Notes: a model not told the origin generated them from the letters alone. A DNA stretch of 64,000 bases from Candidatus Omnitrophota bacterium (GCA_022711115.1 JAKLFP010000002.1:15674-79673), one strand, 5' to 3'. Shown: positions 1-34,268, numbered from the stretch's first letter. A program made the numbers and translations.

Positions 1-112
1 AAAAGTCCAGACACTTGCGCCGCAGTATTTCGGGATCGATGCCACACTGAGTGGAATAAGTAGTAAGACGGGGCCCATTACGGCGAGCGACCTTCTCCAG
101 GCCCGCCAGTTT

Positions 113-3100
113 TTGGGGAACGCGAATAGCGGTTTGGTCATGAAGGCCGGCGATATCCTGGCCAATCAGATGGTGAAGAACTGGGATTCCGCGGCGCTTG
201 GGCTGGCGGAATATTATTTGCAGAAGGCCGTGCTGCCCCTTGTCAGGCAATATACCAATGTGGCCAATGCCGGAAAGCCGCCCACGGGGGGTGTCAAACA
301 GAGCGTTCTTGACGTGATCAAATGGGGCCTGCGTGCGCTGCCCGGGAACATGCTCTTTTTCATCACCTACAACCTGCACTGGAACTATTATCCCGTTTTC
401 ATGTATCCCCTGAACAGCGCGGTGGGGATCGACAATTTCGGCCGGCGCCGCCAGGAGATCTTCAATCCCCAGACCCAGGGCTGGGAATCCCTCTACACGC
501 TGGATAAAATCCGGACCGTCAACCGGGATTTCGTCAATGCGCTGAGCGTCAAGATCAATACCACCTATTCCTCGAACGATCCCATTGTGCTCGGCAAAAG
601 CGCGGTGACGGCCAATGTCCTCTCGCAATATACGAACGTGATGGATCAGTTTATGGAAAACTCCGGCATCCAGCTGGACGGGACCCTTGCCGGCGGAAGC
701 TTCTCGTATCAACTGGATGCGCTTCGCACGGTACAAACAGGAGCCATGACCATCGGCGGGGTCACCCAGTGGGGTATTTCATCGATGCAGCTTAAAGCCC
801 TGAACGGAATGTTCGTGTCCGAGAGTTATCTCTGGGGGTCGCAGGGACAGATGATTGGCACGGTTCAGGAAATCAAGAGCAAGTTCGGCGTCCTGACCGG
901 TGTCATGAGTCTTGCGGCGGACGGGAGCCGGACCTACCGGGGTTATTTCGGGACCTTCGACGAGGTAGGCCATATGGTGGAGCTCCTTCAAAACGCGTCG
1001 CGCGATTCAAGCGGCCGGCTGATCAACGCCGAAATGCGCACCGTGTACGATACCGCGGGCGGCCGGTTTGTCTGGACGAACTACAACGATCAGAACGGTT
1101 TTGTCTCCTATGACTCTTCCCAGGTTTTCAGCCATGGCCGGCTTGTTTCCGAAATGAACGGCGTGATCAGCCGCGAAATTGCCGGGAATCAAATTCTTCA
1201 GGCGGTCTCAGTCAAGATGTTCGGGGAAAACGGGGACGTCACTCAGATCCGGAATTACGTGGAAACCAACGGCATGGTGTTTTTTGGGTGGATGGGGACC
1301 TCGACCGTGGAGCAGAACGTGATCAAGATGAAGTCGGAAATTTTCAACGGAATCATGAAAGACAATGAATTGCTTTATGCCGGAAAACTCATCCAGTCGA
1401 CCGGCAGCTGGTCGACCATGACCTTTACGGATTACGAGCGCCAGGCCAACGGCGTTTTTACGGCGAGCCGCATGGCGGATTCCAACCGCGGGCTTGTGGC
1501 CACCGGTGTCCTGAACATCCATAACGAGATCATCACCGCAGACTCCTATTCGGTCGGGGGCATGACCATTACCAATTATTTCAAGGACTTCAACGGTAAT
1601 ATCCACTTCAGCCGTCTTGATAACCCTTCCCAGCCCAGCATCACGAATGGAATCCTAGACAGATTTAACCATATCATCGCCGGCGATTTCATAATAGGAG
1701 GCCATTTATTCACGTACAGCTCGGCTGTCACGGATTTGTACGGAAAAGATGCGTTACAAATCCAAATCCATACCGCAGACATCCTCGTTGACAGTAAATA
1801 TTATGATACGGAGACCGGCGAATTCATCGGATGCGACCACGTGTCTCAAGGCGTTAGTAAGGGCTTTTATGATCCGAGGGTGTTTACAGAGGTTCTGGCC
1901 GTGATGAAAAATAAGGATGGCGAAATGTTCACGGGAATGGCCAAAGAATATGTGACGGATGCGGGTACCAAGTTTCGTATTGTTCAAAGCGGCGTGGCTG
2001 AAATCGACGGAACCTGGACATTGAATGCGGATATGAAGTCGTGGGTCGTGTATACAGATAGTTTGATTAAGACGGTCGAAGCTGACACCGGAAGACTTCT
2101 GCAGATTTATGACCCGTCAACGGGCGTGTCAACGACTGTAGCGAGGGCAGGAACCCTCGGCGCATTATTCGATCAGTGGCCCAATTTGTCCACCTTCGAA
2201 AAAGCTGAGGTAATTGTGATGGGAGCGATTGCGGGCGTCCTTGCTTTCGGTATCCTATCGGCAGTTGGGCTCGCAATGGGCGTTGCCTTGGGCTCTCTTT
2301 TGGTTACCTGGGGTTTGGCAGCCAAGGTATGGTCCAGAAATATCCGGTCCATTGCATCTAATATAAGCGATGACTTGGTGAAGGGTTTAAATACTTTGGG
2401 TAATCTACTCACGTCCGTTGGGACTCTCGGTTTGGGTGGACCGGTGTACAAAGGTATCAGCGGTTTGAAAGTTGCCGCCGGAGTTGTCTTAAAATTGCGG
2501 CCTTCCTTTTTCAGTACTTCTATGACGGGTTTTCTCAAAGGTGTGAGAATCTCCCTCTTTGCTGTGCCGGCTCTGGGGGTAGGTATGGATTATGTGGGTG
2601 GTCAAATCCAGTCCCAGACGCTTCAAAAGTTGGGCGATCTCCTTACGATGGGACTCACACCGGGTGAAGTTCTAGTCATGTGTCCCGCATTTTTCGGCAT
2701 GGACCTTCTGAAAGCTATGAGCACCATGGGCAAGTCCGTTTTCCTGATTCCGGGGTTAGCATTTTTAGGAGGCGGCGCGTTGTATGCCGGATATCAAATT
2801 CGGCTGAGCTGGCAGGAATCAAAAGTTTTTTCGAACCGCACTCCCAATACCATAAATATATTCGGATGGGAAGTCGGACTTTGGGGATCGATAGGGCTGG
2901 GCGTTGGTCTGGCAGTCGCAACCATATTGGGAGTGAAATTCCACCTACCGCTGAACAGGGCTTTCTTTTGGATGGAACACAGCAAGTTAATGAAGCCGAT
3001 ACTTCCCATTTTAGTCAGCAGCAAAAGGCTGGGCCTGGAAGGATTTAAGCTGGGTCTTTTGGGCTCCCCGCTATTTTTGGTTGGTATGGGCGGCGGTCTA

Positions 3101-6100
3101 TTATACGGTTTGATATGGGACCGGGATCATTTGGTGCGAGACATTCTTATTGGTGGATTTGGAACCGTAATCGGTATTTCGCTTTTGGGCGCAACGGCCC
3201 ATGGCTTAGGCCTTTTTGCCGGAACTTATTCTTTATCCATTGCGCGGGGTCTTTCGGGGGGGCGGGCCTTCATGAACGGGATAGCCGAAGCATCCAAGAA
3301 TTTTATGGTGAATTTGACGCGGAGTATTGTCTTTCAGACGAGGTTCGGGATCGGACTTAACGCGGGCGCCGCGGCTGCTAATTTTTTGTTTAATATCGTT
3401 ACCCGGGGCTCCTATAACGATGCCATGATGGCGGCGCTCATAAAAGCCCAAAACAGAGAATCTTTGACGATGGGGGAGTCGATCCTGGTCGCGATGTTCA
3501 ACCTGGGGAGAACGGATATCTCGCCTTTTGAAACGGCGTATCAGAATACGTTCGGGACGCAGATGTTCGGGGTCCCGACCGCGATCATGTTTGCGACCGG
3601 CATTCCTTTGATCTCAAAGGCCATGGAAAGCATCCCTCTTGTGGGCGGTTTGCTTCAGATCGCCAACAAAATATCCGGTGCCCTGCCGAATTATTTTTCA
3701 AGCCGAACCGGAGAGTTCGGGCGTTACGCCTTCGGGTTTATGGATGAAGGCATCCTGGAGCCCATCATCGGATGGACTTTGGAGCAAGTCGGAATCGGCG
3801 GCGCGGAAGGCACGTTCTGGAATGACGTCAATAACATGCTGCAGGAATCGGGCTCGGCCATTGAATCCAATCGCCTGCCCCCGATCTCCCAAATGCTCCT
3901 GTCCGGTGGAATCAAAAGCCTATCCGCTCTTGAAAGTCTTTATGGTTCGGACAATTTGACAGCCATGCTGCGGGAAAGAGTCGCATTCTTGAAGGGGGTC
4001 GATATAGGTACGGTCACAGGAGACCAGGCCAGCCTGCGCGTTCAACTCGGCAGCCTGCTTTTTACCGATTTCTCCAATGCAGCCGCTTTTTCGGATATCG
4101 ATACGATGACGAATTTTGTGGAGGCCCTTGGGATCTCGGAACAAGGCTTGAGTCAGCAGATCATTAGCGGGGCCCTGGCCGGGTCCATTGACCGGACAGC
4201 GGCAACGCGCGTCATCGGCAATATCGTGGGTGTTGCGCCCGGAGCGGTCACCGCCTTTTCCCATGTGATTGCGAGTGCGGTGAACAATCCCACGATCGGA
4301 GCCCAGAAATTTCATGAAGGGATCATGGAACTTGCGCGATTGCTCGTGCATCCCAATATCAATCAGACCCAGATCGACCTGTGTGCTGCATCCATCGGAC
4401 TCGGTCAGAATTTTTATGCCAATCTCGTGAGCCAGGCCCAGGCGGTACCAGGCGCCCAATCCCTGGCTGAAGTTTTTCGAAATTCGGTGGCTTTTCAGCT
4501 GGGTTCTAATGTCAAGGCCATCCAGAGATTTGAAACAGCCTTTAACGACGGGGATTCGCTTGCGGACATTCAGGCCCTGGCTACGGACTTGACGACCAAG
4601 GTGTACGGCAGCTTTATCGCCTTGGAAACCACGGTCGACATTTTCAGGCAGGCCGGACTTCCGGACACTTCGCTTGAGGCGGTCCGTCAGCAGCTCACTC
4701 CCCAAATGTTTATGGAATTCAATTTTTGGAATACGAGCGAGAGGCTCGAATTTTTAAACAGTTTCCTGGCCCAAAATACGATCCCCGGTTTGCCGGCTAA
4801 ATTTCCTGAGGTCGTGACCGCGCTTCAGACGAACGTGCGTCAGAATGCCCCGCTCATAGAAATCTTGTCAACCGTGGGTCAATTGCCTGAAAACATGCGT
4901 TTTGCGGCCATGCTTTTTGTGGCTCCGCAGCTTCAGACGTCCCAATATCAACAACTCAAGGACCTGGTTTCTTTCGTGAATTCCGTCCCGGATCTGGCCG
5001 GGGTGAGCGAGAATTTGACCCTGGATGTAGCGCTGGGCGCGTTACGCACACCCAAAGATTTGGTCTTGGCGGTCCGGGGGCTGATCGGAAAGGCTCCCCC
5101 CGCGACTCAGCAGTTATACGGGGATGCGCTCACAGCGTTTTATGTTCAGTTGTTGATCAGACCTGCCAATTTGTCGTGGACTCAGGTCCAATCCATCATT
5201 ACCAATCTTAAAGTGCAGGGGGATGTGGGCCTCAGTCCCGAGCAGCAGGCGTTCCTCACAAGTGTGGTCAGCATGTCCAATATCCCTGCGGCGGAGCTCA
5301 GTCAGACCTTGAGCAGTTTGAGCGGAGTTCCCGGATCCAATCAGTTGACCGCGGTCCAGCTCGCCCGTGTGACGCATGTGGCTCAGTCGCTTGTGAATCC
5401 GGATCTGACAAGTGCAAATCTTGCAGGGCTTCTTGCCGGCGCAGGCTGCGGCCTGCCGGAGATGTTTGCCGTATTTAATCTCGCGGCAACGACACCCGTC
5501 CTGAGCGGCATGACCTTCATGGATTTTCTGGATTTGCATCACGAAGCGCTCGGTTTGCAGTCGCTCGTGGTATCCGGATTGAATGTTGGATCGGCCCTGG
5601 CGGATCTCAAGCAGGCTTTGCCTCCTGGCGACTCTCCTGATAGTTTGACCATGCCGCAGATATATACCGTGGCTCAGAGATACGCGGCATCCTCCCAGAC
5701 TTCAATCAATGACGTAATGCTCACGCTGCTCAACTTGGTGCAGCCTTTGCCTCAAAATGCGCATCTTGTGGAGGCTTTCATGCTTGCCCAGAGGGTGGGG
5801 GTGGACATGTCCAGCCTTACGGTGGCAAATTTTATGCATCTGAATGTGGAAGCCCATGCGACGCCGCTCCAGGTGTTGGAGTCAATGGGTATGACGGACA
5901 GCAATTCAGCGTTGCTGAGTGATAACGATGTGCGGGAATTCCTTAGTACGGGATTTAGTTCAGCCACAGAACAGGGATTTCAGGCGGTTTTGAATTACAT
6001 CAATCAGATGCCGCAGTTTGTGAATACCCCCATGACGATGCAGGAACTGCTCCGCTTGGTTTGCCTCGGCAAGCCGGTGAAAGTGACGCCCCAGCAGCTC

Positions 6101-9100
6101 CAGGTGTTCAGCCGTATTATGGATTCGTTTCTGGCACTGGGATTTTCAGAGCTACACCTGAATTTCAGCCAGATTCAAACCGTCCTTGCAAGTCCCAGCG
6201 ATCTGGAGGCCTTGAAGGCTCTCAGAAGCATCACCGGGACCGGGAATCCGGCCGTGGATACTTTCCTCGACGAACTCATCACCATCGTTGACCAGCCCAC
6301 CCTTGGGCAATTGCGGGAACTTCAAAGACATTTTGTCGGCGTCCCTCCTCCTGCGCTGACTGATCTGCTTCTCCTGCTTCATTTGACGAGCGCTGCCGAG
6401 CTCGCGCCCGGCGTCGTGCAGCTTCCCCTGACCGTGCCTTTACCCGGCACGAACATAAGCACCATCATGGTTTCCGAGGCCATGCTGGCCCGCATCGCGG
6501 CCAATTTCGAAATCAATCTCACGGACTTGACCGTGGACCAATTGGCGGAAGCGCTCTTCAACGTCAATAATATTCCTCCCACAGCCATGGCCGATCTTGA
6601 GAAGAACATCGCGAACTTCGTGCGGGCCATGGCGGTCCAGACCGGAAAGCCGCAGCCCGTTTTCCCGGACCAAGCCACGCTTGTCCGCGTCTATTTGGCC
6701 AGGGAGCTCCTGCTCGCCATCCGGACAGAGACCGGGGCGCCGATTTCCACCAGTCTTCTCAAGCAGGTATTCGTGCAATTTGGATTGATGAATTTGGACC
6801 TCCAGCTTTTTATCCAGCGCGAGCTGGGCCTGACTCCGGTCGCGGATGTCTCGGGCTTTTTAAGCACCATGACCCGCAACAATTCCATGACCCAGGGTCT
6901 CAACCGGCTTCTTGCCGCGGAGGATACCTTGGTGAATCGACTGGCGTTTGTTGACGCGCTAGGAATTCCGAGGAATTCAGCGCTGGTCGGCGACATCCCA
7001 ACCTTACCGCAGGAGATCAAGGCTTTAGCGCTTCAATGCCTTACGGCCTTAAGCAATATGCCGGAGGGCGCTATCGGGGTCCTTAATTTTGAACGGCTCG
7101 TGTCCAATCTGCTCTGGCGTAACTCACAGCCTGCGGCCGTTCAGAACTATCTTGGAAGCCTTACGGTCTATGAGCTTTCCCAGCTGACACAAACGCAGAG
7201 AGATAATCTTGTAATGCAATTAACTTTTCTGATGGGTCAAGAGCCTAGTGTCCAAGCGCCTATCCTTTCGCGATTGAGTGCCCTTGAAATCGCGGGCATG
7301 ACCAGTCAGGAGATGACGGACTTTGCTGTCCGGATCCAAAGCCTTGACGGTTATCAAACGACGATGCGCCTGATTGTCGCAAATAGGCTGGCCGGCAAAG
7401 ATAATCTGCTGGAGGGGATTTCAATCGATCCAGCTGAGCAGAACTTGTGGAACACGTTCCACCCTGTATTGAAAGCGATGTCCATCAAATCGATCCGCGA
7501 TATCGCGGAGGTTTTTTCTACGGTGACCGCCCGGTCTGTAGCCCGGAACGGATTTAACGCTGAAGCATTCTTCAAGATGCTCATGGTGAAAGCAATGCTG
7601 CTTCAGATTTCTCCCAGCCACGGACTGGGCACCCTCACCGAATTCGAGGTTTTGGAAAATGTTACCGTGCTTTTGAGCGATTCAACAAACTCTCTGGGTC
7701 AGGTCTTCAGGAATTTGGATGTTGTGATCAGTATGGTGGGTCAGCTGACCACCGACGACCTCGCAAGGATGACTCAGGAGCAAATGCGGAATCTGATTGT
7801 TAATCTTTTTGCCAAGGACGGACTGGACAATTTGGCGGCTCACGACAGCCTATGGCCTGTTCTGATCCAGATCCTGAAAGGGAACTATGCCAGTCAAATC
7901 GACACCCAGCTGAATGCGCTTAAGACCTTCTATGACGCGTTTAAAAACAACCAAGAGGTCATGGTCCGGATGTCCCAGCTGGGCCAAGATGCTGCGGCCG
8001 CATTTTTGAACAACATTTTGCTGATCCAAACCGACACTAATCTGGTGCCCCAACTCCTTGATGTGATCCTGCTTACCAATCTGGGAGACAGCGTCAGTCA
8101 AATTACGCAGGCTGGAAACGGATTTCAGGTCACGATGGCAAGCGGGCAGATCCGGTTTGTGAAAGCCGATGGCGCGCTCAATATCCCGAACCAGATCGAT
8201 CTGGGCAACGGATATTCGCTGGCGCAAACTACTTCCAGTCCGGAAGGCCCAAGCACCTACACCATCTCCTCATCAAATGGTATTCCGATTGGAACTCTTA
8301 CGGTTTCAAGCGGGGAGCATCCGGCCATCACACTTAATATTACACTGGGTGGAAACAACGTTCCCGTGACGATTGACGGGGATCTGTCAAGGCTTCAGAC
8401 CACCACCCAAAACGGGAATCTTGTTGTGATCATTCAGTCCGGGTCGGAGATGCGGCGGATCACGCTGGGGCAGAATGGCCAGCAAGTGGTTGAAAATTTT
8501 GATCTCTCTGAAACCGTCACGGAAGCGCCGATGACCCTGCCGAATGAGCTGACTTTTTCTATCGATGCAGATAATATTTTTAGACTGCAGAGCGGTAGTT
8601 TGAGCTTCACCGTGGACGGTCATGAATATGAGATGGAGTTTGAAGGCGGCGTGCTTGCAGAGACCATCCAATTCAATGGGGAAGGGGAACTGGTTTTCAT
8701 GGATGCGCAGGGAGACCGGCATCAGGTGAATGCCCTGGCTGGAGGAAATTTTGTCGAGACCGTGCACCAGGTTTCAGGCGGGATCCGGACGGTGGTGCGC
8801 AATCATACCGGCGCTCCTGTGCAAACCATTGACGGTGTCACGAACGTGACACACACGGCAACCGGTGTGACGGTGGTCGGTCAAAATGCGGTGACGCTCA
8901 CAATCAGCGCCGATTCCAATTCCATGACAATCCATGTCTCCGGGCCGGTCGGGGTACCCGGGCCGGCCGTTCCGCTGGTTGCTTCGAATCTCATGCTTTC
9001 AAACGAAGGAATCGTGATGGGGCTTTCCGAAGACCGCTCCACGCTGTGGATTTCGGCGGGCGGACAAAGCTTTTCCGTGAATACCTCCACGCAGATCATA

Positions 9101-12100
9101 ACGGAATCCACCAATGCCTCGGCCATCGGCTCCACCCTGTATTATGCCCCGGCCGGAGGTTTCATCATTGTCAATGAAACAGGCATCGTGATGGAGATCA
9201 TCGGGGATGTTGGGAACATCCGGCAGGGAGATTTGGCGGTCCCCGTTGCGGCCGATAGTCTGCAGAACGTTCGTCCAAGTGTCATTTTTTATGATGAGAA
9301 TGTGGATCAAGTGACCGGAGTGATCGGAGACACGGGCCCGAATTTCTCGCTGCCTCAGGGGAGTCAAGTCCAAACCATTAACGGCACGAGGATTGTGACG
9401 GCCCATCCTATTCAGGCCGTCGATCTCAGTTTTCACGCAGAGGATTTGATGGGGGCCTTCAATGAACATTCGTTGATGCGTGATGAATTCCCCAATGAAT
9501 GGTTCCAGGGAGCCCTGAATAATATCCGGACAAGGCTCATGAACGGGGAAGAGGTCAGCAAAGAGGAATGGGCCGAGGTCTTGAACCAAATTCTTCAAAT
9601 CAGGCAGCGCGCAGAGGATTATCAAAGGATTCTGGATAGTGTTGAGGCAGATTCCGCAATTCGGGACCGCCTCGGTAGCGCGCTTCTCGAACTTCTGGCC
9701 AAGGCAGCGGATATCAACTCAAGCATGACCTTAGAGGAAATCCAGCGTCTGAACAGGAGATTGCTGGAGGCTTTCTTCCCGCTCCAAATCCAGGCAACCT
9801 TTTCAAATCCAACTTATAGTTATCAACCTGCGGGCTCCAATGCATCGGTCCAGGTCGATGCGAATGGCCAAATTGTCGTGACGGCCGTGACTCCGGCCTG
9901 GAAAGAGATTTTTTTAAGACTGCCGGGCGGGTCGCACTACACGGTGCTGCAGAATGGCTCTGTGGTTTATTCCGTGCAGCGGCCCGACCGCGGATTTAAT
10001 ACGGTCGTGGTTTCACTGGACGGTGTGATGACGGTGAACGGTGTGTCTTTTCTCCTTGATGAAAGTACCCAGATTGCAATGGGCCTGTCAGGCGAGGTGA
10101 TCCTCAATCGCGGTCCTCCGATCCGAATCCTGGATGACGGCAAAGTGACCGTCGGCGGTGGCCTTGTTCAACAAGGCACGGTCGTGCATCTCAAAGACGG
10201 GCAGGCGATCATTTATTATACCGATACCCGCATTATTTCCAATCAGGATGCATCCACCCAAGCCACGCATCCCTGGATTCTGCAAATCAAAGAGACCCGG
10301 ATACCTCTTGCCGCCGATCTTGTTTCCGCTGAAGTCCGGCCGGACGGCAGCGTCATTATTATTGTTGAGGAGGCTAACGGCCTGGTCCATTCTCATCTCA
10401 TTCAGCCGGATGGCAAGACCGCGACGGACTTTGATATCAACGGCATAGGCCCGATCAATCAATCGATCCCCGTCAGCCAATTGCCTCAAACAGGGCCTGC
10501 CACGTCTCCTGCGGTGGCCAATCCGCCGGCTCCGAATGTGACCGTGCCGCCGGTGCAGTTTCCGAATCCTGTTTCAGAGATCGATTTAACGGATCTCTCC
10601 CCTCAGTCTCCCGCGCAGACGCTCCAGATTCCGAACGTGGGAGTGATTACGGTACAAGTCGTCCCGGCCGGGGACGGATCGATCCGGTTTGAAATTGACG
10701 CGACCAGCTTGCTTCAGCCGATCACGCTGCTGCTTCCCGGGATGACGCCCGAAGGCCAGACGCCGCATGTCACGTTCGTGACCGTGACCCCGATCGGCAG
10801 TTTAATACAAGTGACGACGTCTACCCCGGGCAATCCCCAATTCGTCATAACCGAAGTCCCGATCGTGCATATTGAAAATTTAGCTCACCCGGTCAGCGTG
10901 ACGACTCCAAACGGGGTTGTCACCGTGCTTCCCGTGAATCCGGCGCAGGGGACCCCTCCGACGATTGATACTTCGGGCTTGACAGGACCGGTCCAATTGG
11001 AACTGCCCGGCGTTGGCTCGTTGACAGTGACTCCGCCCGCGGATCCGTCAGGCAATTTCACGCTGGGCGACCTGAACTTGACCGCACCAGTCCGAATCCG
11101 TCTTCCAAACGGGACAAATTTTGACATCCCGGCTCAAAGTAATGGGGAAATGCAATTTCCAGGGTCTATCATTATCGGTAATACCACAGGGAAGATCCGA
11201 ATCGATTCGATTGTGGTGAATGCAAACGGCGTGCTTCAGAATCTGTTCATCGTTTTTGGCAATAGCAGGATTACCCTCTGGCCGGGAGATTATGTCGGGG
11301 TGAATATCTGGTCCTCGCCATCCGGGGAAATAAACGGACTTGTAATCAATAATGTTTTCGACACTCAGACCTATTTTTACCGTCCCTTCGGACCCGAGGG
11401 GCAGTTGACGCTCCGCGGCCCTCTGCCACAAACGTTTCTGTTATTACAGGACTCTTTTATACAACATCTCAATGCTCAAAATTTAAATCAAGCGAACCAA
11501 GTTATCGAGGCAATGATCGGGGCTTTGAGCCAGGATGTTCAAAGGCCGGGCGCCCTTGAGGCCATGCGGCATGTGGTTTTTGATGCCCTCGTTCTGCTTC
11601 AGAATCAGCTGATTGCGCAAAGCTTGGTTCCGCAGGCGATTACAAACCTGACGCGCATCATGGTCTTGTTGGGGTCATTGACCCAGGGCCAGCCGTCTTC
11701 GGTTCAGGCGGATATGAAGGTCCGTCTTGCGGGCGCCCTCATTCAGCTGCAGACCCAGCTGGCCGAGCTGAATTTCACACAGCTCCAGAGCCTGAACAAT
11801 GTCTTGACAGAGCTGAACCAAGCCATCAGCGATTTTCTGCGTAATCATCCGGCGCCTGATATTGAGGAAGCCCTGAAAAAAATGCAGCAAGGCATTGCTA
11901 AAGGCATTCTGCGGCATGCACAGGAAGCTTCAAATCTGGACGCGGCAGTCCAAGCGATCGGACTGAACGCCGGAGTCCGCATTCTCAAGCAAGCGCCTAC
12001 GATTGAAGAGATCCAGGGTTTGGTTAAGGTAGCTCAGGCGAACGGACAAGAATATCTGCTCTTTTTCTCAAGCGAGCTGGGGCGGTATGTCCTCTATACG

Positions 12101-15100
12101 AGCGGTTCGCAGTCAGGGGGGGTGACGACCGGATCTCCGGAATTCCGGGATTATCTCCGGAATGATCCGAATGTGTTTGTGGTTGCTCACACGCATCATG
12201 AGGTGCAGGATCCGAGTGATCTGGATCTGAAGGAGTTTGGACAAAGCCGGAGAGACTTTGAATTTATTTTCACGCCGGCCGGAGTCACGATTCTTTACAA
12301 AGAGACCGGCAAGGACGGCGAGATCAAGGTGAATTTCATCCACGTTTCTTATGGGAGTATCCCGTCCGAATTTTTTGGGATCCTGGGCGCGCTGGCCCAG
12401 TCTCAGGATGTAGATCTCGTGGTCTTTATGAAGCTCCTCGGCATGCTGGATCAAAGCCTCGGCGAGAAGACCGTGATCCGGAGACAGTACAATCTCCCGT
12501 TCGGCACCCTGACGGATCTTTTAAAACAGAACGAACTGCCGCGCGTCGCAGATATTGTCAAAACCTGGATGGATACAGGCGGCACGACGCGCGCTGATCA
12601 GTCTCTTGCTCTCAAGGTCCTGACGCTCCGGGCCTTGGTAAATTTCTACGTAGATTACCCAAATAAGACAGTACAGCTGCTCAATCTTCTTCGGGAAATT
12701 TCAAACGATCTTTCTCAGCCTGAGAATTTTTCCATGGTGGATACGGCCCTTCTGCGAAACGTATTGCTCCAGGCCATGAGTTTGTGGAGTCAGGAATTAA
12801 TGCGGGCCCGGACGCAATATCTTTTAGATAACGGACCAAGTGCTGCAAGCCATCCGGCCAAGGAAAGAATCAGGTTACTTGGAAAAATCTTGTTGCAGCT
12901 CAAAAACCTGGATCAGCAGGCGCAGTTGAATAAGAGGACATGGCTTACAAGACTTTTTGCCAGGCCCCAGACCGGACAAGTTGATGCGGAGGAAATTGAA
13001 CTGCTTGGCCTTGGCGCTATCCGCGGCGTCGAAGAAGCAGATGTTGAAGTGGTCCTGTTTGAGGAGAACCAGTCAGATCTGGAATACACACTACGTAGCA
13101 ATGCCTTAAATTTGTTAAAGGCGCAAATGAATTTGGTAGGGCTCAGGGCCCCTATCCATTTCCTGATCGTGCCCAATGCTCAGGCTGTTGAGGCGGATGG
13201 GAGCGTGCTCTATTTTACCGTAGATGATATTACGGGTGTGATCGGTCTGCAGACGAAAATCAGGGATTTTGTTCAGCGCACCGGGATCGGGATTACGGCT
13301 GCTGAAGTGGCTGAAGAAGCTGAGGCGTCTGCAGCGTCTGCAGCGGCTGAACAGGCTGCGGCAGACAAAGCGGCTAAAGAGACTAAACGTGCGGCGCCTC
13401 CTTCGGGATCGGTTCCGACCGATGCGCCTTTGACGACTGCCACGCCCGAGACCGCAGCAGGCTCCACTCCGTCTGTCCCATCAACTCCGGCAGCCACACC
13501 AGCTTCTCTCGCTACACCTGTAACACCGTCCGCTGCTTTGCCCACAGTGGCTGAAATTGGTCAGCAACTGAACCGTCTCCGGAGTCAAAGATCGATGCGT
13601 AGAGAGGAGAATGAAGCATCGAATCGACAGGGGACAAGCGCTTTCACGAATGCCGATGCCGAGACGCTGCGTCAATGGGTTCTTCGCATCGCATCCATTG
13701 ATCAGCAATGTGAAGCCTTGGTGCAGGGGTTGAGTGATGAAGAACTCAAGGTTTTACTTTCCACTGACAATGAAACTCGTCTTCTACGCGGCGAGGCGTT
13801 GGAATTGCGTGACGATCACTCTGCACCGGATTTTGCAGCGCGGGAGCTTGTCAAACGGGGTGTTGTAAACGCTGTCGGCGCTCCCGTAACGCCGGCATCT
13901 CCCACTCTGACCCCCGAGTCAGCGGGTCCAGCTCAGGGCAACGTGGTACCGCCGGCAAAGCCTGTTTCACCCGCTCGTGATGAGGTTGAGGCGCCAAGGT
14001 CAGAACCTCTTGAGGTGGAAGAAATTATGATTCCCGAAGAACCCGCAGAGTCTTTTGGCGGAAATAGAATGCTTCAACTGATTTCGAGAATCATGAAATT
14101 TGAAGCTAAATTGAAAGAGTTGAGAACACAGTGGGAGGCAGCGTTAAAGCAAAATGAAAAGGCCAAACAAGAACAAATCTCTCTACAAGAAATGACTTTA
14201 TTGAGACAACTCAGCGATGAAGTAGAGCCTCTTATTAAATTATTGAGTGAGGATGCTTGGTTTCAGACCGCTATCCAGAAGGAGTTTTTTAGCGGAAGAT
14301 CCGAATATACTTCGCTTGTTCGATTGATGGAACGCGGGCAAGAGAGAGAATTTGTCCAGACCCTCATGGAGGCAACAGCCCGCGGTATGGTCGAATATGA
14401 GGGTGGCAACTTTCCGGCGGAGGAGCAAATCAATAGGATTAGTCAACTATTGCCAAAAGGTGCAGAAGGATTTGCGAGTGACTTTTATCGTGTTGCAAGG
14501 GGTTATTTGGATGGTCTGCGTCAACAAATTGCACAACAGACCCAAGCCCCGATTTCTCCAGCAGCGCCCACAGAGTCTGCGCCAAGAGGTGCATCACCTA
14601 GGACTGAAGTGCGGGGCGGGGATATCAATATTTCAAACCTCGGACCGGGCGCCGCGGTCTCTCATACGACGGCCAACCAGCGGTTTGGACGTGCCATTAC
14701 GAATCAGAAAGCGGCGATCGAAGCCTTGGGGATCCCGGCCGACCGGGTCGACGACTTCCTGGATCTGGGCCAGACGCCGGACGGGGTCCGGGTCGTGATC
14801 CTCAATGCGGAAGAAATTACGGATGAAGAGTTTGACCAGCTTGGCCATGCGGGGCTGACCCGCAATGTTGTTTATGTCCTGCGCCGCGGCAGTGAAAACT
14901 ACTGGCCCGTGGCCGGCCACGAACTTGCGGAACTCACGCTCTGGAAGACCCTCGAATACCAGCTTCGCCAGCAGGGCGAAATCGCCCGCTTCGGAGAAAC
15001 GAATTCTTCCAAGCCCCGGGATATCCGGGCCTGGATCCAGCTTCAAATGCAAACCGCAAACGGAAGGGAACGGGTCCGGAAATATGAAGCGTTCTTCGAC

Positions 15101-18100
15101 CGCATGGCTGCGGCGGTTCAGGAGATTCTCACCGATCTGATCAATCAGGATGCTTGGGCGATTCGGACCGTGGATGATCTTTCCGCATTCGTGCGCGAAA
15201 AGATCGAAGAGCTCCAACGTCCGGCGGCCGAGCTCCAAGGTCGAAGTGTTGCCGACATCATACTTCGCCAGACCGAACAGGATTTCAAAATCCGGAAACA
15301 GGAAGAGACCATCCAGAGGTTGGAGGACGGCATCCGTACTTGGGAGGACGCCTTAAAAGGCATGGCGCAGCATGAGCGGCTGCGCGTCATGGTCCGCTCC
15401 GGCGCCGGAGGCGCCATAAAGTCCTACACGCGCCAGGAGATCGAAAGCCGGATCCGGATGCTCCGCAGCCAGCTCAAGCGCGAGCAGGTTGCGCTTGAAG
15501 GGCTCCAAGGGGAACTCAAGCTGGCCCGCACTGAACTGAAGGAGGAGTCGAAAGCCCAGGCCAAGGTTGCTGTTCCGGCCGCCCGGAATGAGTTTGAAGT
15601 CTTCTTTTCCCCCGAACGCCGGAACGAAGGTCTCTCGACCGAAAACGAAGTTGCTTTGGGCGTTCTTGCCAAAGATATTTTATCCGACGCCGAGGGACAG
15701 CTGCTCGAGAGCTGGTTTGAGTATATCCGGAGCAGGAACCGCCAGGGGGATCCGCTTAATGAAGAGGCTCTCAAATATTTTCTTGAACTCCTCAGCATTG
15801 ATTACGAGGGACTGAAAAAACAGCCTGGATGGAATCTTCAGGGCCTGACATGGATCAGTAAATTGCGCGAGGTTGCGCAATTCCTGAAGCAATTCCACGC
15901 GCTCCGGAAAGATTTCACCAATCTTTCGTCGGAACATAGCCCGCTGCTCGACAAAGTCTTTCAGGCGCTCGTTCGCCTTTATCTTGTCTCGGTCCGGCGC
16001 CTGTCCCGTGGAACAGGGCTTGAGTTGATTTTACAGGCGAGACATATTGAGAAAATCGTTTCCGGGCTCATCGAGAAAGAAGTTGCGGATAAAACGGCCC
16101 GGTCCGTCATCCGGGCTTCGCTGATCACCTTGTTGAGTACTGAGACAATCACCAGTACTATTCAGAGGGTGGCCGGACTCTTTGACGGTCTGCAAGGCAA
16201 GCTGATTGACCGGCAAGAGCTCATGGACAAGGTACTTAAGGGGCAGGAGGACAAGTGGAGTAAACTTTTACCTGCTGCCGGCAAGGTCAGCCGGGCGGAG
16301 GCCGCTCAAGCTGCGGGGGAGGCTGCGCAGACCTATCTGGCAAATAATGGCAATCCACCAGGGAAGCCGGAAGACAAGATCGTAGCAAAGGATATTTTGG
16401 TCGACGGGGCCTCTTTGGAAGGACTCGCGGAAGAGGCCATGCGCGAAAAGGGAGAAAAGATGCAGAAATCCCTGACAGCGACGGCCCACCGAATTTTGAG
16501 GGCCATTCTTGAAACGACAAGCATGACTCATGAGCAGATTGAAGAGGTTATGACGGATTTGACAAATTGTTTTGATAAGGAAACAGGCGAACTTATAGAC
16601 CGCGATAAGTACAGGACCACCTTAAATCGGTTAGTAGGAGATCAAGATTCTGAGTTGAATGCCTATATCCGGGACGTTCTGGCCACTCGGATCGATCAGC
16701 TTCGTGTCATGGGCCAATCAGCCCTTGGGCATACCGAAGGTTTTGATACCTTTGTGAGAGAGTCCCTGGCGCTTGTGAATTTGGCTTACATGATGAGTTA
16801 TGGCCGTTCGGATGCTGAGGCCTACCGCGGGGTCCAGAGTCTCACCGCTGCGGCGGCCACAGGCTATGGCATCGCAAACTTTGGGACGGGGGAGGGAAAG
16901 ACCAAGACATCGGCCATGGTCCTGGTGGTTCACTTTTTGCGGAGCCCCAAGGACCGGCCGGTGATGCATATCGTGTCCCAGGATCGATTTGCCCAGGATA
17001 ATCTCGGTGAAATTCATCCGATTTTATCTTATCTGGGTATTGGGCATGACCGCCTGAGCCGCTCCGATGATAACAATAAAAAATCCGGGATGCTTCAACA
17101 TGACGGCATCGTCTACACCAGTGTCAGCACCTTTGTCTTCGAGTTTTTGACGGATAGGGCCAAATCAAAAGGCGAGCATGTCTTTCCTTATGATGAGGCG
17201 GAGGTCAACCCACTTCCTTTTATTATGAACATGGATGAGGTTGACAGTATTGCTATTGACCAGTCCCTGAACGCCTTCATCATCGCAAGCGCGGCGCAGC
17301 AGGCTCCTACCCAGGAGTATGCCTTGAAGTCTATCTGCGACGAAATCGCATCCTTCATGGTGCGCGGGAACCTGATTATGCGTGTCTCTGACAAGCGGCT
17401 CCAGGAAATCCGGCAGAGTGCGAAAGACGGCGAGGACCTCGGCCGTCAGGTTCTGGCGTTCGTTTCGGATTCGGGGCAGACCCACCTGACCCAGCAGGGA
17501 AAGCGCTATGTGCGCGAAGTCGTTGCTCAGGCCGTCACCGAGTACGGCTTCAAGAAACCCTATCAGGGTGATCTCGAAGATCCGGCCAATGACTGGCTTT
17601 GGAAACAGATTGGGAATGCGTTCGGGCCGCACACGGGCCAGTACGCCGCCAATCGGAATGTCAGCATCAGCTCAAACGGCGAAGTCAAAAATATCGACCA
17701 GGCTACAGGCAGCCATCAAAACACAAAAACAGCAGACGGTGTCCATCAAGCCATTGAGGTGGCGTTATCGAAGCTCTTTCCAAATCAGGGGATCACGGTC
17801 TCGAGTGACCACAGCCAGACCACGGACCGGATCACGTTCCGACAATTCATCGAACTTTTGGCCGCGACCACGAAAGTGGAGCACGGGGGTCGGAAGGTCC
17901 GGGTGAGGCAGTTGAGCGGTTATTCCGGGACCGCCCAGGAGGTCAGCAAGAACCTCAAAGAGGACCTGGGACTTCCCGGCGAGAACAAGCCGGTCGTTAC
18001 GATTCCTTCGTTTGCTCCCAAGGTGCGGGACAGCCACGCGACGTGGTACATTAACAGGTGGAGCGACGCCATGAAAAATCACAAGCTCGAATTCATCAAT

Positions 18101-21100
18101 ATAAGAATTCGCCGAGGCGGCGCGCCCAAGATCATGAAGTTTGAACATGGCAATACGGCTGCTGCAGTCCGTCAGTGGATGAAGCGCGATCATGCCAGGG
18201 CCCTTGAGCGGGTGAGACTCGATTCGGGATACAAACAATTATCTGACGCTCAAATTCTCAGTAAAATCGAGGAAGAATGGGCCACGGATAAGCTGAGCCC
18301 TCAAGCATTCGACGTGATTCGATCGAAGATGGAGCGTGGATTGCAGCTCAGCACGGATGAGGAATTGCTGCTTGCGAAGTTTTGGCTCCTCACCCTGGAT
18401 GAATTCCAAATTTACATGTATGACGGAACCGAGTCGTTCGCACAGGAGAAGAAAATCCTCGACCGTGACGGCGGGGAAGCCAATGCCCTGACGATCGGGA
18501 CCAATATCCTCGGCCGCGGAAAGGATTTCAAGCTGCTTGACCAGAATCAATTAATGGAGCTCTTAGAATTACTCTTGACACCAGAAGAATTTGAAAAATT
18601 GGCTCATTCCGTTGGTGAGGCATTTAAAAAGCTCAAAGACAAAGATTTGAGAACAAGTGTCGGGGAAGGCGAGGGCGATCCTCGAAATGATAATACTGAA
18701 AAGTTTAAGAAGATAGAGAAACTTCTGACCGAACATATTACAGACGCCTTTCAGGAAATAATTAAAACCAAGGAAGGAAATGGCCGTGTCAATTTGGTGC
18801 GGATACGTGATGCATTCTTGGCCCGGGCGTACGGATACCAGATGTTCCGGGAAGTGGCTAAATCCGCTCGTTCCGACACCCAGTCGCGGGGCCGAGCAGG
18901 CCGCCAGTTTGATATCGGCGCGGACTTTGAGTTCATGGTTTTTGAAGATGCGGATCAATTAAACGAGGAGTCGGAGGAGATCAGTTCGTCGCGGAAAAGC
19001 TTTGACGAGGGATTTCCGCATCTGGATTACAACTCCAGCCGCTGGATCAATCGCTTTTTGAATCAGCCGCCTGCCAAGGGCGGAGCGCAAACCCTTACCC
19101 GGCTGCTTTTTGTGGCTGCGCCTCTTGCGATTTTTGGGATCGTCGTGGGGCTAGCGGCTCCGCCGGTTGCGGCCACTCTGGCTGCACTGATCGCATTTGC
19201 GCCCGGTCTTTTCGCGATCATGACTTTGAGAAGGGACTCACTCGTTCATCCCGAGCACGGCGTTGTGAAAAAAATCACTTTGTCATCATTCATCAAAGAC
19301 CGCATCAGCCGTAAGGCCTTCTTCTTTACGAACGCTCATCAGCTGACGGTGGCGGGCCTTTCGGTGATGGGTGCCATTGCAGCGGGAGTGCTGGTCTTTG
19401 CCCTTGGCGCGGGTCTTGTTTCCGTGATCGCTGGCGGTGCGGTCCTGGCCCTGGTTTATTCCTCCTTTGTCCTGCGAAGCTGGGCTGCAAATCTGAATTT
19501 GGGTTTCATAAGCCGCATGATACAAACGCCGGGAGAAAAGATGGACCGTCGATTCTACGGTATCCTGACTCAAACACAATATAATAAGATAGGAAAACTG
19601 GATACCAAGGCTGTCGCCGAGATGGACCGTTTCAAAGCCATCAGCCAGGAAGGACATGAATGGTTCTACAGCCAGCAGCGCAGTTACCAGAATCGTTTTG
19701 ATGCGTTCCTCGAGAGTTTCTTAAGCCCCTTCATTGCAGGGGCCAACCGGCTGGATTGGACGAAGAAAGATGACCAAGAAGGGAAAGCGGAGAATGCTCC
19801 GGGTGCTCTGGGTAAAGTCTTGAATGGGATTTTTGGAAAAAGACTTCAAACTGCACCGGTTTACGAAGCATCGATGATTGTTGCTGCGGCTTTTGCCCTT
19901 CCTTTGCTTGTGCCTTTCGGCGGGTTGATCGCGCTGGCCCTGGTTGGGGGATACTTTGTGGGCAAAAATTATAAGCGTCTGGTTCAGCGTTCCATCGTGC
20001 CTATTCAATACATTCACGCCTATTTGGACAGGATTTTCTATGATTATGAAGCGGCCATGGTCCAATACGAAAAGCGTTATTTCGAGCTCTTGAAAAAGAA
20101 GACTCCCACGGAAATCCAGAAGGCCGTGCATCAGAAAATGAAAAAAGAAGGCCTGGACCAAAAGCAAGCCTATGACAGTGTCATCAATGAATTGAACGCC
20201 GAAACGAACGATCTTCTGAATCATCCTCCGGCTTTTGAGCTGAGGGACAAAGTCGCCTGCTATGACCCTGCGGCCAAGCGCTTCGGGGGACTCCGGCCCA
20301 AGAAGAGCACGCTCATCGATTTTGATCTCACGCTGCCGAAGCCGGTTCCCCAGGTAAGCGCGCAGTCCGGCGAATACGCAAAATTGGTTCGGCAGGCCAA
20401 AGCCGATTTTAAAGCACTGCGCGATCAGGTCGAGAACCTGCGCCGGGACCTGGAATCTCAAGATTTGACGAAGTTAATCACGCCTGAAATACTGCGGCAT
20501 CTTCATGGCATGGTCCGCAGCGAATTTATCGAGCGGGCGCAAAAAGCTCAAAATGAGTTTTATGATCAGCGGATCAATATTTTGGGCTTGGTCGTGGGGA
20601 TTCCTCTCATGCTGGCCGCTGGGTCTCTGGGATGGCTGGTCGGACGGAGCACCTGGCTTTCGAAATACGTGCAGAAGTGGCTCAAGGCCGAGCCGGGATT
20701 TTTCAGCTGGGCCCGTGCAGTCATGATGCATAAGTGGCTCAAGGGCTGGATTGGATCCTATGTGGGACTGCTCGTATTAAATTATCTGGATATGAACCTG
20801 AATTTGGCGGACTGGATGGCGCGCAAAATGGCGGAAGACGCGGTTTTCATCGGCCGCAACGCGCGCTTTGACGCCATTCATGGCAAACGCGATGACCTGG
20901 CCATGAATGCCATACTGAGCGGATTTGTAGGAAATGTCCTTGCGCCCGTGGCGGAAAAGGAAAGCGAAAAAAGGACGCCGCGCAGCACCACAGAGGCCCC
21001 CTCGAAATTGAAATGGTATCAAGACCCTTATTCCCGCGTGCAGGTTTATACGGAGGATGATTCCCGGTTGAGGAACGGAGAGGCGGCCGAACTTGTGGCG

Positions 21101-24100
21101 ACCCAGGACGATCATCACGTGCAGATCCAGAGGGTGGAGGAGGTATCCGAGCCGGAGCGGCCGGACGTGGACATTCAGCTTTCCAGGGAACGGGTGCTGG
21201 GCAGGGACGCGGGCGCCATGGATACGGGTTTTGCCCCGGTTCCGAAGCTCGAGAAGACAAGGACAAATTATGATGCGGAGGCCACCCGGGAGGTCAGGAT
21301 TTTTACAGGAAGTGAGCAACGTCTTGATGGCGGTAAGGTAAGGCTTCCTTTTGGGTTCGACTGTAGCGAAACGGATTGCAAAAAGAACGCGTCCATCGAG
21401 CTTCCGGCGCAACTTGCCGAGCAAGTGAAAAAAGACCCCAGGATTTTGGAGGATCTTGTCCGGGGCCGTGTGGGGATCGTCAAAATCGGAAACGAGTATT
21501 TCCTCGGCGGATCTGACAAGGAAGGTTATCATCTGGTGAATTTGGGGAGCGAAATCAATATGCGGACCCTGCGGGTCATTCAAGGCCTCAGGCACGATGC
21601 CCGGCTGGTTCGCATGGATGCCGGCGGCCGCATCTTTGTAGGCCGTGAGGAGGATATTCATTTTGACGGAGGGGAAAGCCAAATCGAGAATTTGGGTAAA
21701 GGTTCTGTGTTTATTGCCGGTTCGGACGGGATTTGGATCGTCGAAAATGTGAAAATAGGCGAGCAGGTCGTGATTGAAAGCAGCCGTTTGCAATCAACCG
21801 AGAATTGCCAAATTGAGAGAGGGGCCCAAGTGCGTCATTCTTCGCTAAGGGCCTCAAAAATCAATATTGGAAAACGGACCGTGGTGGACCAGGTTATGGA
21901 TTCGCGGAAAACAGAGTTCACGCTTCCTGCCAATGCCCAGGTCGTCGGCGTGACAGGGACGAGCGGCTCGATGGATACCGGGGAGGTTAAGGAAAGCGAG
22001 AAGTTTTTTGGAGTTGTGAATGAAACAGGGGAGTTGCTGCCAGTCGAGTCAGGCGAACCGGAAACCTATTATGTATTCAACCGCGGACTCATGGGCCGAA
22101 TGGACCGGCTGCTCCGGAGCCTTCATCTCATCATTGATCCTGCGCGCAAAGCGCTGGATATTGCAGAGCTGCATCACGATGCTGTGATGACGCTGGAGCA
22201 GGAATCCGGCATGTCACCCGACGACCTTGCGGCGCTCGGTCCGCATGCTGCGGAACTGATCGGTGCGCGGTCTGAAAAAGCGGGTTGGCCTGAAGTTCTG
22301 ACGCGGACCGCCTATCGCACCGTCCAAGCTAGTGTTGTTGTGGCAAGCCTCCTGTCGCTTATCGGACTGATTGTGGCGGCCTGTTTCAGTGTCGTTGGCT
22401 GGCCTGTGGTGATCGCTGCGGTTATTGCGGCGGCTGGGGTGAATGGCCTTGTCTGGCTGGAACATCGCGTCCAGGCGGTCAATAACCTGATTCGGAATCA
22501 TTTTGAAGGTTCCGCGCTCCGGGAACTTTCGACGATCATGTTGCATCGCCAGGTTCCCAAACAGGCTAGGATCGCTATGATACTTCTTTATCATCAACTT
22601 CGCGTTCGCAGTGAACAACCCTTAACCCCAAATCAAGCGGCGCAACAAATTCTCCGGTCCGGGATGTCGGTCCTGGGAGTCGGATTTGCCGCGCAGCAGC
22701 AGAATGAAAACCGGTATTCGGTCAAATTCCGTAAATATCAGGAAACGGTTAGGGCAGTGCGAGACTCCATGGATCAGAAGGTGAGCGCGGAGCTCTCCGC
22801 CAAAATTCTGCGGCGTGTGGCGATACCGGTTTTCGCAAAGGACAAGATGAAATTAGCCCGGATCTTAGGCGGCGCGGTCCATCGGTTGGATAAGACGGCG
22901 GAAGGTTATCCTTCGTATCAGCCGCTTTTGATTTCTGCTATGTATGAAACCGTGGTTTATAAGAGCTGGAAGGACAAGATCCGCGGGTGGTTCAAGAACC
23001 AGACTGTTATGAGGGTTGTCCAGGGGGCGCTGACCGTGATGGTCGGGGCTGCAGTCCTATGGACCCTGCCGATGCTCCTGCCTGAAATCGGCGCGATCGT
23101 GATCCTGAAATTGGGATTCGCGACGCTCCATGCCAGTGTCTTTATTACGTTGCTGAAGGGGTGGCTCATCATGGCAACCCTGCAATCCGTTTTGCGCAGA
23201 GCCGATTCGATCCTTGCGAGCGACGAAGCCCAGAAGAAAGCTCTTGAGGAGGCCCGGATCCAGGGATATGGAAGGATGAGCATGCTATGGAAACGACTTA
23301 AAACGAACCGGATGATGTCCAGGCTGTTCTCCTACAAGCTCTTCAGTTATGACGCAATCAAAATGACCGGATGGTACAAACTACCGGGATGGATTTCCGA
23401 CCGGTTGGCCGCGTGGGCCGGAGGGGATGCTGAAACGCTTTTACGGCGGGCGCTTGGCGGGCTTGGACACGGCATGGGGCAGAATTACTGGCGGGAGGGA
23501 TTGATGGTTGCTCATGCCCGGTTGCTGGAAATAGAAGCCTCGAACGTGTCCGAAGAAGTTAAGGCAAAGGCGCGAAGCGATTTTCAAAAGCTTGCCCGGT
23601 TCGTGACGGAAAGGCGGCACAACCTAAATTGGGATGATGCCAAACACAGCGATGACACTTACCGAGAATTTGATAATTTATTCAAAACTTTCGATCCGCT
23701 GCTTCTGGATGCATGGCACAGCGCGCGCAAGCACGAGCGTGAGTGGTCGATTGAGGAGTTCTTTGTCGCCAATAGCAACGATGAAGAGGTCGTGCATGCT
23801 TTGGCTCGCCTCGCGTCCTGTACGGCCCGCAAGGTCGACATGACAAGAAATCTTAAGCAGCGCGAAGCCATTGAAGCCATCAAAAAAGATCTTTGGGATC
23901 CCTTCCTGGCCCTGAAACAAAAACTGGACAGCGGCCGGGCGAGTGAGATCACCGAGGATGAAAGGGCCCTTGCGCAGGAAACGCTCGGTAAACTTCTTGC
24001 GGAATTCAACCTGGGCGCAGAGCCTGGGAAGGAGCTGACCGTAGGAGACCTGTTTGAGGGTGAATATGATCCTTCAGTAGCGCGTCAGGACCGTCTGATG

Positions 24101-31310: not shown

Positions 31311-31486
31311 CAGGGCACCTGACTTTCTATAAAATAAAAAATCGGGAAGTCAGTGTAGCCCTGAGGGTCCATTGGGAAAATAAAGATATCCATCAGGGCA
31401 CCTGACTTTCTATAAAATAAAAAATCGGGAAGTCAGTGTAGCCCTGAGGGTCCATTGGGAAAATAAAGATATCCATCAGGGCACCT
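31308..31486. repeat. Perfect 83-bp tandem direct repeat (2 full copies plus 13 bp of a third) in the batA-batB junction; each unit carries an imperfect stem-loop
   Basis: Unit 'catcagggcacctgactttctataaaataaaaaatcgggaagtcagtgtagccctgagggtccattgggaaaataaagatatc' sits at 31308-31390 and 31391-31473, then 'catcagggcacct' at 31474-31486. Inverted-repeat arms are 'cagggcacctgactt' and 'aagtcagtgtagccctg'. Confidence 0.9.
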
Positions 31487-34262: not shown

Positions 34263-34268
34263 GGAACT

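Follow-up and report, generated by a model that had tools for sequence, protein, structure and literature searches.

The 64,000-nucleotide stretch of DNA considered here (the window; Candidatus Omnitrophota bacterium, GCA_022711115.1, JAKLFP010000002.1:15674-79673) begins inside a giant gene. A single plus-strand frame, free of stop codons from base 2 onward, encodes 9,410 residues before it ends at 28232-28234 (Table 1; residue n lies at window nucleotide 2+(n-1)*3). The protein carries a divergent SecA-type motor, three clusters of hydrophobic segments and, between and after these clusters, large soluble regions. The three clusters are membrane-type segments and the protein is polytopic, and the long hydrophobic runs that follow the motor look, from their composition and flanks, like two-helix hairpins with both ends on the cytoplasmic side. 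A first-pass annotation of this DNA had read the clusters as repeated membrane crossings that place the motor, a beta-rich region and a C-terminal HEXXH region in defined compartments. The clusters are where that annotation put them; the sorting of the domains by them is not borne out.

Table 1. Features of the giant gene and its protein within the window. TM, transmembrane; KD, Kyte-Doolittle hydropathy.
Feature	Residues	Nucleotides	Strand	Description
Giant gene, C-terminal part	1-9410	2..28234	+	9,410 codons plus stop; single frame open at window left edge
Low-charge, N/Q/S/T-rich, beta-looking region	1-3850	2..11551	+	Defined by composition; interrupted by cluster 1
TM cluster 1	737-1204	2210..3613	+	About 10 KD segments
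Charged region	3851-5535	11552..16606	+	Helical-looking by inspection only; between low-charge region and motor
Divergent SecA-type DEAD motor	5536-6330	16607..18991	+	Pfam and motifs; lacks scaffold/wing domain
GTGEGKT (Walker A)		16883-16903	+	Motor motif
DEVD		17234-17245	+	Motor motif
SGYSGTA		17915-17935	+	Motor motif
GTNILGRGKD		18497-18526	+	Motor motif
SRGRAGRQ		18884-18907	+	Motor motif
Putative hairpin 1	6368-6409	19103..19228	+	42-residue uncharged run, central AAPP dip, K/R on both flanks
Putative hairpin 2	6439-6491	19316..19474	+	53-residue uncharged run; hydrophobic core 6448-6491
32-residue hydrophobic run	6623-6654	19868..19963	+	PLLVPFGG at middle; single TM or short re-entrant hairpin
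24-residue hydrophobic run	6858-6881	20573..20644	+	Candidate single TM
Mid soluble region ("beta-rich region")	6985-7439	20954..22318	+	Conserved in the P0073 alignment
Putative hairpin 3	7440-7486	22319..22459	+	47-residue uncharged run, central GWP dip, K/R on both flanks
Last hydrophobic block	7672-7731	23015..23194	+	60 residues; two TMs most likely, three possible
C-terminal soluble region	7732-9410	23195..28231	+	Two HEXXH motifs
HEVQH (HEXXH)	8171	24512-24526	+	Motif
HESIH (HEXXH)	9156	27467-27481	+	Motif; Glu 20 residues after second His

When the protein of the adjacent VWA/TPR gene was looked up by exact match, four public assemblies proved to contain the locus (JGI 3300010429, JGI 3300009838, ENA ERZ761563 and ENA ERZ27257456). 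There the giant gene is called at 14,610-14,639 residues, about 5,200 residues beyond the left edge of the window, in keeping with the earlier suspicion that the N-terminus might lie upstream. All four calls stop within a few bases of a contig end, so the true protein is longer than 14,639 residues, and the window holds its C-terminal two-thirds or less. The assemblies break off at nearly one position, about 43.9 kb before the stop of the giant gene, which implies an assembly-breaking repeat or a variable region there. The first 500 residues of the window, used as a query for the rest of the gene upstream, found no match in metagenome or genome contigs. We could rule out an assembly artefact or a pseudogene: the last 8,970 nucleotides of the gene (19265-28234) are 100% identical across the four independent assemblies, the frame has a coding pattern of GC content at codon positions 1, 2 and 3 (0.59/0.40/0.61), and the ATPase motifs are intact. 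The genome is that of an Omnitrophota bacterium, with five of six neighbour proteins (RecA, DnaK, AlaRS, SMC and HisD) identical to proteins HOW58819-58843 of a 'Candidatus Omnitrophota bacterium' metagenome-assembled genome. No internal protein repeats were found in the giant protein and no tandem DNA repeats inside its gene.

Hydrophobic segments were taken as peaks of KD hydropathy over 19 residues. Cluster 1 holds 10 segments with KD of at least 1.3, four of these at 1.7 or above. Cluster 2 (residues 6368-6881, nucleotides 19103-20644) holds six, with KD values of 2.58, 2.21, 2.47, 1.33, 2.34 and 2.07, and cluster 3 (residues 7440-7731, nucleotides 22319-23194) holds four to five (KD 2.57, 2.09, 1.98 and 1.68); a weak extra segment lies beyond cluster 2 at residue 6966. 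The total for the window protein is about 20 segments, 9 of which reach KD 1.9, and 13 of the 14 peaks with KD of at least 1.6 lie within the 15% of its length that the three clusters cover. Between the clusters and after the last one, soluble stretches of 5,163, about 460-560 and 1,679 residues remain, close to the 5,000, 500 and 1,700 residues given by the first-pass annotation.

Raw peak counts alone are weak evidence for a membrane protein, since a plain shuffle of the 9,410-residue sequence, 41% of which is hydrophobic, matches the count at KD of at least 1.6 (16.9 peaks shuffled vs. 14 observed). Peaks at KD of at least 2.2 are enriched, with 6 observed vs. 1.5 shuffled. At KD of at least 1.9, the giant has 9 peaks, compared with none in about 7,100 residues of the window's cytoplasmic housekeeping proteins and one in 155,543 residues of canonical SecA. 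Uncharged runs of at least 30 residues with a mean KD of at least 1.5 are absent from the SecA controls, and there are five in the giant (38, 42, 53, 32 and 47 residues), with a further run of 34 residues at a mean KD of 1.47. The window's known membrane proteins score like the giant's hydrophobic segments. The combination of length, lack of charge and hydrophobicity was never matched in the soluble controls, and in this respect the earlier description of the clusters as TM segments that cross the membrane many times holds.

The motor is recognized by Pfam and by its motifs. PF07517 matches at residues ~5536-5952 (E=3e-19), PF21090 is borderline at residues ~6147-6316 (26 bits, and 28.9 bits in a second scan, with a cut-off of 27), and the match to PF01043 (PPXD) is weak, with a PPXD-like insertion at the canonical place. 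The TIGR00963 score is 77 bits, compared with an equivalog cut-off of 800. The scaffold/wing (PF07516) and SEC-C (PF02810) domains were not detected in the giant by Pfam scans, relaxed thresholds included. All of the ATPase motifs are intact, and they are also kept in four relatives considered below (P0072, P0073, P0077 and P0082). An AlphaFold2 model of the motor has a predicted local distance difference test (pLDDT) score of 58 overall and 75-88 in NBD1, and its top matches in the PDB are all SecA, a result that is partly circular given that the model was built from a SecA sequence alignment. Pfam and NCBIfam scans of the 9,410 residues at relaxed thresholds and a PDB sequence search returned nothing besides SecA, and the PDB match to SecA is weak.

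Putative hairpin 1 begins 38 residues after the motor ends, and putative hairpin 2 is preceded by a 38-residue loop with 8 lysines or arginines. The 42-, 53- and 47-residue runs all have K/R on both flanks, and two of them (6368-6409 and 7440-7486) are bilobed, with a PP or GWP dip. Because these runs are too long for one crossing and carry K/R on both flanks, we read them as two-helix hairpins that would bring the chain back to the cytoplasm. A positive-inside enumeration was carried out in which uncertain segments were included or excluded, lysine plus arginine (K+R) inside minus outside was scored and the motor was fixed in the cytoplasm. The C-terminal region is inside in all of the eight best models, the best of which scores 24.

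The soluble regions after the motor have a cytoplasmic type of composition. K+R amounts to 12-14% in the SecA, mid and C-terminal regions (13.3% in the mid region and 13.9% in the C-terminal region, which also has 14.7% D+E), the level of cytoplasmic proteins of the same genome; 15 cytoplasmic housekeeping proteins of that genome have 10.4-16.5% K+R (mean 13.7%) and 17-23% asparagine, glutamine, serine and threonine (NQST). A weak match to LbH_EIF2B (E=0.035) raises the possibility that the mid region may be a left-handed beta-helix. The C-terminal region has no Pfam, NCBIfam or PDB match. It contains two HEXXH motifs, compared with about 0.17 expected by chance (an estimate from residue frequencies), and the distance from HESIH to the following Glu is a thermolysin-like spacing. 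These motifs are suggestive of a zincin, and we consider the region a candidate for one.

The composition is different ahead of the motor. Residues 1-3850 have 0.7-8% K+R and 24-33% NQST, the sequence is adhesin-like and beta-looking by inspection, and no Pfam, NCBIfam or PDB match was found for it. Cluster 1, within this region, is glycine-rich (14.7% G) and starts with a 38-residue uncharged, GxxxG-rich run (residues 737-774, nucleotides 2210-2323) in which glycine occurs at every fourth to sixth position. A composition break follows at residues ~3850-4550 (nucleotides ~11550-13650), downstream of which K+R rises to 10-18%, like that of local cytoplasmic proteins. No TM-like segment was found in the charged region (residues 3851-5535), where the best KD peaks (1.49, 1.31 and 1.21) each contain D/Q/N residues. 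By KD there is no such segment anywhere between residues 1205 and 6367, so none lies near the composition break.

Relatives of the motor are few. An exhaustive HMMER search with residues 5530-6700 gave only six proteins below 1e-10: fragments, among them P0072 (44% identity) and P0073, and the Omnitrophota protein P0077 (5,111 residues). A second Omnitrophota protein, P0082 (3,155 residues), follows at 2.9e-09. Everything beyond these fragments and two Omnitrophota proteins, the only relatives closer than canonical SecA, is canonical SecA. P0073 is a partial protein of 1,840 residues that aligns with the giant at 25-31% identity, from the motor's second half up to residue ~7500. It has runs of 51, 44 and 40 residues at the positions of the giant's 6368-6409, 6439-6491 and 7440-7486. 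It has no run at 6623-6654, and its segment aligned to 6858-6881 is amphipathic with lysines; the 200-residue domain between these two runs is conserved. The absence of a TM segment between hairpins 2 and 3 in P0073 places the conserved domains there on the same side as the motor. Hydrophobic runs of 40-62 residues occur in P0073 and also in P0077, which has six tandem glycine-rich runs of 43-62 residues before its motor and a 62-residue run after it. P0077 also has AHEVGH and GHELAH motifs after the motor. The order of low-charge region, charged region, motor and TM segments is common to P0082 and P0077.

Other searches added no further relatives of this kind. Word-indexed homology searches with the motor plus cluster 2, with residues 6340-7540 and with the P0073 alignment, against a database without the giant itself, returned canonical SecA or nothing. 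One alignment (A1) found no match in genome contigs. A second, SecA-type alignment (A2) found 80 loci in metagenome contigs, the best two of which (L009 and L010) are ordinary secA genes of 912-914 residues; none of the 80 matches lies inside a long open frame. The one long frame, on the contig of L009 (Ga0180433_10001608; 1-9308, at least 3,099 residues), ends about 500 nucleotides before the ordinary 914-residue secA.

From these observations we think it rather likely that the giant is an inner-membrane protein of more than 14,600 residues in which the SecA-type motor is cytoplasmic, the hairpins after the motor act as staples, and the regions downstream are cytoplasmic as well. The motor is placed in the cytoplasm because an ATPase motor needs ATP and must be cytoplasmic. 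Each long run would enter the membrane as one helix and come back as a second, leaving only the 2-6-residue hairpin turns exposed outside. The hairpins could hold the motor against the inner face of the membrane, replacing the missing SecA scaffold/wing, and could likewise staple the following ~3,000 residues to that face. As the chain would come back to the cytoplasm after each hairpin, the mid region, possibly beta-helical, and the HEXXH region are probably both cytoplasmic rather than in alternating compartments. We infer that clusters 2 and 3 are membrane staples and not a compartment-alternating weave.

Several points weigh against this arrangement. KD hydropathy and charge counting are crude guides to topology, and the enumeration separates the two outcomes by a small margin: the best model with the C-terminus outside scores 20 vs. 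24, although it requires a segment of KD 1.9 to be ignored. The two AlphaFold models that bear on the hairpins disagree. The single-sequence model of residues 6340-6900 has low confidence (pLDDT 51) and split only hairpin 1 into two helices, and the AlphaFold2 model of the motor drew the hairpin 1 run as one long helix. Charge scores hardly separate the two crossing parities of cluster 1, with 12 for an in-to-out path of 7 or 9 TM helices and 11 for an in-to-in path of 8 or 10. In addition, the extracellular-like residues 1-3850 are followed by no TM segment before the motor, which puts them on the motor's side by standard rules and is left unexplained by a simple model of stapling. Either composition is no localization signal in this region, or the export route is unconventional.

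The remaining points are those that would be expected if the polytopic protein were woven through the membrane, so that from one TM cluster to the next its motor, mid region and HEXXH region came to lie in alternating compartments, for example with the motor inside and the mid region, the HEXXH region or both outside. The protein has its ~20 hydrophobic segments in three clusters. Residues 6623-6654 and 6858-6881 are of single-TM length, and if both span the membrane, the K/R-rich 203-residue loop between them would be outside. Three helices in residues 7672-7731, rather than two, would flip the C-terminal region to the other side. West-Roberts et al. also placed most recognizable domains of Omnitrophota giants outside the cell by TMHMM-based localization, in a study that called the TM predictions ambiguous or unreliable (10.1101/2023.11.21.568195). 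Nevertheless, we consider a weave unlikely. The strong elements are 42-53-residue runs whose K/R flanks on both sides favor an even crossing count, the enumeration by charge bias prefers the C-terminus inside, and the K+R content of the mid and C-terminal regions is of the cytoplasmic type. The two single-pass candidates are absent or not hydrophobic in P0073, in which the homologous domains would therefore stay on the motor's side. For these reasons, the compartment sorting proposed in the first-pass annotation does not follow from the clusters.

An explanation that addresses the low-charge region directly is that the motor acts in cis to export the protein's own upstream, beta-rich part (residues 1-3850 and the sequence beyond the window), with the hairpins fixing the export site and the exported part serving as a surface or attachment structure. 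The composition of residues 1-3850 is unlike that of local cytoplasmic proteins and resembles that of surface proteins, the motor is intact with a weak PPXD-like insertion and sits 38 residues from a membrane hairpin, and the same order of regions in P0082 and P0077 is consistent with such a role. A speculation by West-Roberts et al. is that a giant protein of this kind is exported by its own SecA-like domains (10.1101/2023.11.21.568195). We regard this alternative as distinctly unlikely in the present case. Residues 1205-6367 contain no TM or stop-transfer segment and so offer no standard membrane crossing; the two-helix finger of canonical SecA belongs to the scaffold domain, which is absent here; and the low-charge N-terminus of P0082 looks disordered and P/T/S-rich rather than like an export-specific domain. 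A signal peptide, if there is one, would lie in the upstream part of the giant beyond the four assemblies. The more specific proposal that residues 1-3850 and the upstream part are extracytoplasmic without a classical TM crossing, and that the stapled motor threads its own chain through SecYEG or through a channel formed by the protein's glycine-rich TM clusters, seems improbable to us. If it were true, this giant surface protein would carry its own translocation motor and export itself.

Finally, it is highly improbable that soluble domains account for the hydrophobic stretches, either as their buried cores or as amphipathic surface-binding helices, as several cluster 1 segments of moderate hydropathy (KD 1.3-1.6) and high glycine content, the shuffle at KD of at least 1.6 and the lack of a confident membrane bundle from AlphaFold might suggest, because the 9 strongest peaks and five long runs of the giant have essentially no counterpart in the soluble controls, the known membrane proteins score alike, and the runs recur in relatives despite the low sequence identity.

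Omnitrophota giant genes are a recently recognized and functionally unexplained class, and the location of the domains of their proteins relative to the membrane decides between an extracellular machine that degrades the walls of prey and a giant scaffold on the cytoplasmic face. To this class the locus adds one example and no new category. It does add a testable reading, that of paired hairpin staples, and a puzzle, that of an extracellular-looking region with no crossing before the motor.

The 36 kb downstream of the giant gene are ordinary chromosome, with genes for YqeY, a BatA/VWA/MoxR operon, DnaK, a two-component system, trp and his genes, AlaRS, RecA, SMC and FabF. Rfam and tRNA scans of the window gave no matches. 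The giant gene (2-28234) has a GC content of 0.51-0.54, compared with 0.43-0.49 in its neighbours (28235-64000), and a third-position GC content of 0.61, compared with 0.45-0.58 in housekeeping neighbours; this deviating composition points to another regime of codon usage or to a foreign origin. The operon (29265-35258, minus strand), of an aerotolerance type with BatA/VWA/TPR, DUF58 and MoxR AAA+ genes, runs towards the giant gene's 3' end. Within the operon, and just beyond it at 35327-36217, are genes for two proteins without Pfam matches (315 and 296 residues), each with two strongly hydrophobic segments. A perfect 83-nucleotide tandem duplication (2.2 copies, 31308-31486) sits where the BatA-like gene meets the start of the VWA/TPR gene, overlapping the ends of both; ERZ27257456 is shorter by 83 nucleotides at this site, so the copy number differs between samples. 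An imperfect 66-nucleotide tandem repeat with a 30-nucleotide sub-period (29659-29820) is found in the C-terminal third of the VWA/TPR gene (minus strand).

Comparison with canonical SecA makes clear that the giant protein is not a SecA but contains a SecA-like motor. The two share the DEAD-motor fold of NBD1 and NBD2 with Walker A, DEVD and arginine-finger-type motifs, and canonical proteins match the motor at E ~1e-8. The giant's motor is 22-26% identical to them, sits deep within a long polypeptide (residues 5536-6330) and is directly followed by TM hairpins as we read them, whereas SecA_SW and the SEC-C zinc motif, present in essentially all canonical matches, are both missing.

Two further comparisons are analogies. 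Type III secretion delivers the small inclusion-membrane (Inc) proteins of chlamydiae, which insert into a membrane derived from the host. Their bilobed domains, with 40-60-residue uncharged stretches, two TM helices, a very short turn and flanks on the same side, resemble the putative hairpins of the giant, and the Planctomycetes-Verrucomicrobia-Chlamydiae (PVC) superphylum is common to both; the likeness drawn is one of domain form, and the giant differs in having several such elements along a polypeptide that carries its own ATPase. Cluster 1, in turn, resembles glycine-zipper two-TM hairpins (PF05433/PF13488-type) in glycine content and GxxxG-like spacing, a likeness of composition only, as Pfam glycine-zipper models found no match in the window protein at E<=1.

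The closest known systems are the giant proteins of Omnitrophota, of which published catalogues list 5,761 with at least 10,000 residues. According to West-Roberts et al. (10.1101/2023.11.21.568195), full-length giant genes of this phylum all encode numerous TM regions, and the majority code for divergent SecA DEAD and preprotein-binding domains without a scaffold/wing, for which the adjacent TM regions are a possible anchor. Nielsen and Lui (10.64898/2026.06.07.730766) applied DeepTMHMM to 916 Omnitrophota proteins of at least 10,000 residues and found a TM helix or signal peptide in 94%; 46% had TM helices only and were interpreted as membrane-anchored with a cytoplasmic bulk. The published median is 16 helices and the mean 22. 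One architecture group of 20 proteins had SecA_DEAD (PF07517) as its only Pfam match (10.64898/2026.06.07.730766).

The present protein resembles these giants in its Omnitrophota genome, its length beyond 10,000 residues, its ~20 TM segments (KD-based here), its SecA DEAD motor with a PPXD-like insertion, no scaffold/wing and adjoining TM segments, and its near absence of other recognizable domains, extreme divergence and very few relatives; the link rests on this architecture and on the two Omnitrophota relatives P0077 and P0082, not on direct alignment. It differs in its surroundings. Many, though not all, of the giants have type II secretion or carbohydrate import neighbours, and no type II secretion or sugar-import genes are present among those in the 36 kb downstream. 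Archaeovorin-type domains (glycosyl transferase, methyltransferase, glycosyl hydrolase, NUDIX and C39/S8 peptidase) were not found in the 9,410 residues by Pfam or NCBIfam at E<=1, nor were there Pfam matches to the dockerin and TSP3 features of Dockerin-type giants. The latter's N-terminal part has no TM segments, whereas cluster 1 lies within the low-charge region here. By the domains detectable in the window, the protein is neither Archaeovorin-type nor Dockerin-type and fits the SecA_DEAD-only group. A many-TM architecture with a SecA-like motor is already published for Omnitrophota, and the reading of the post-motor segments as hairpins is what this locus adds to it.

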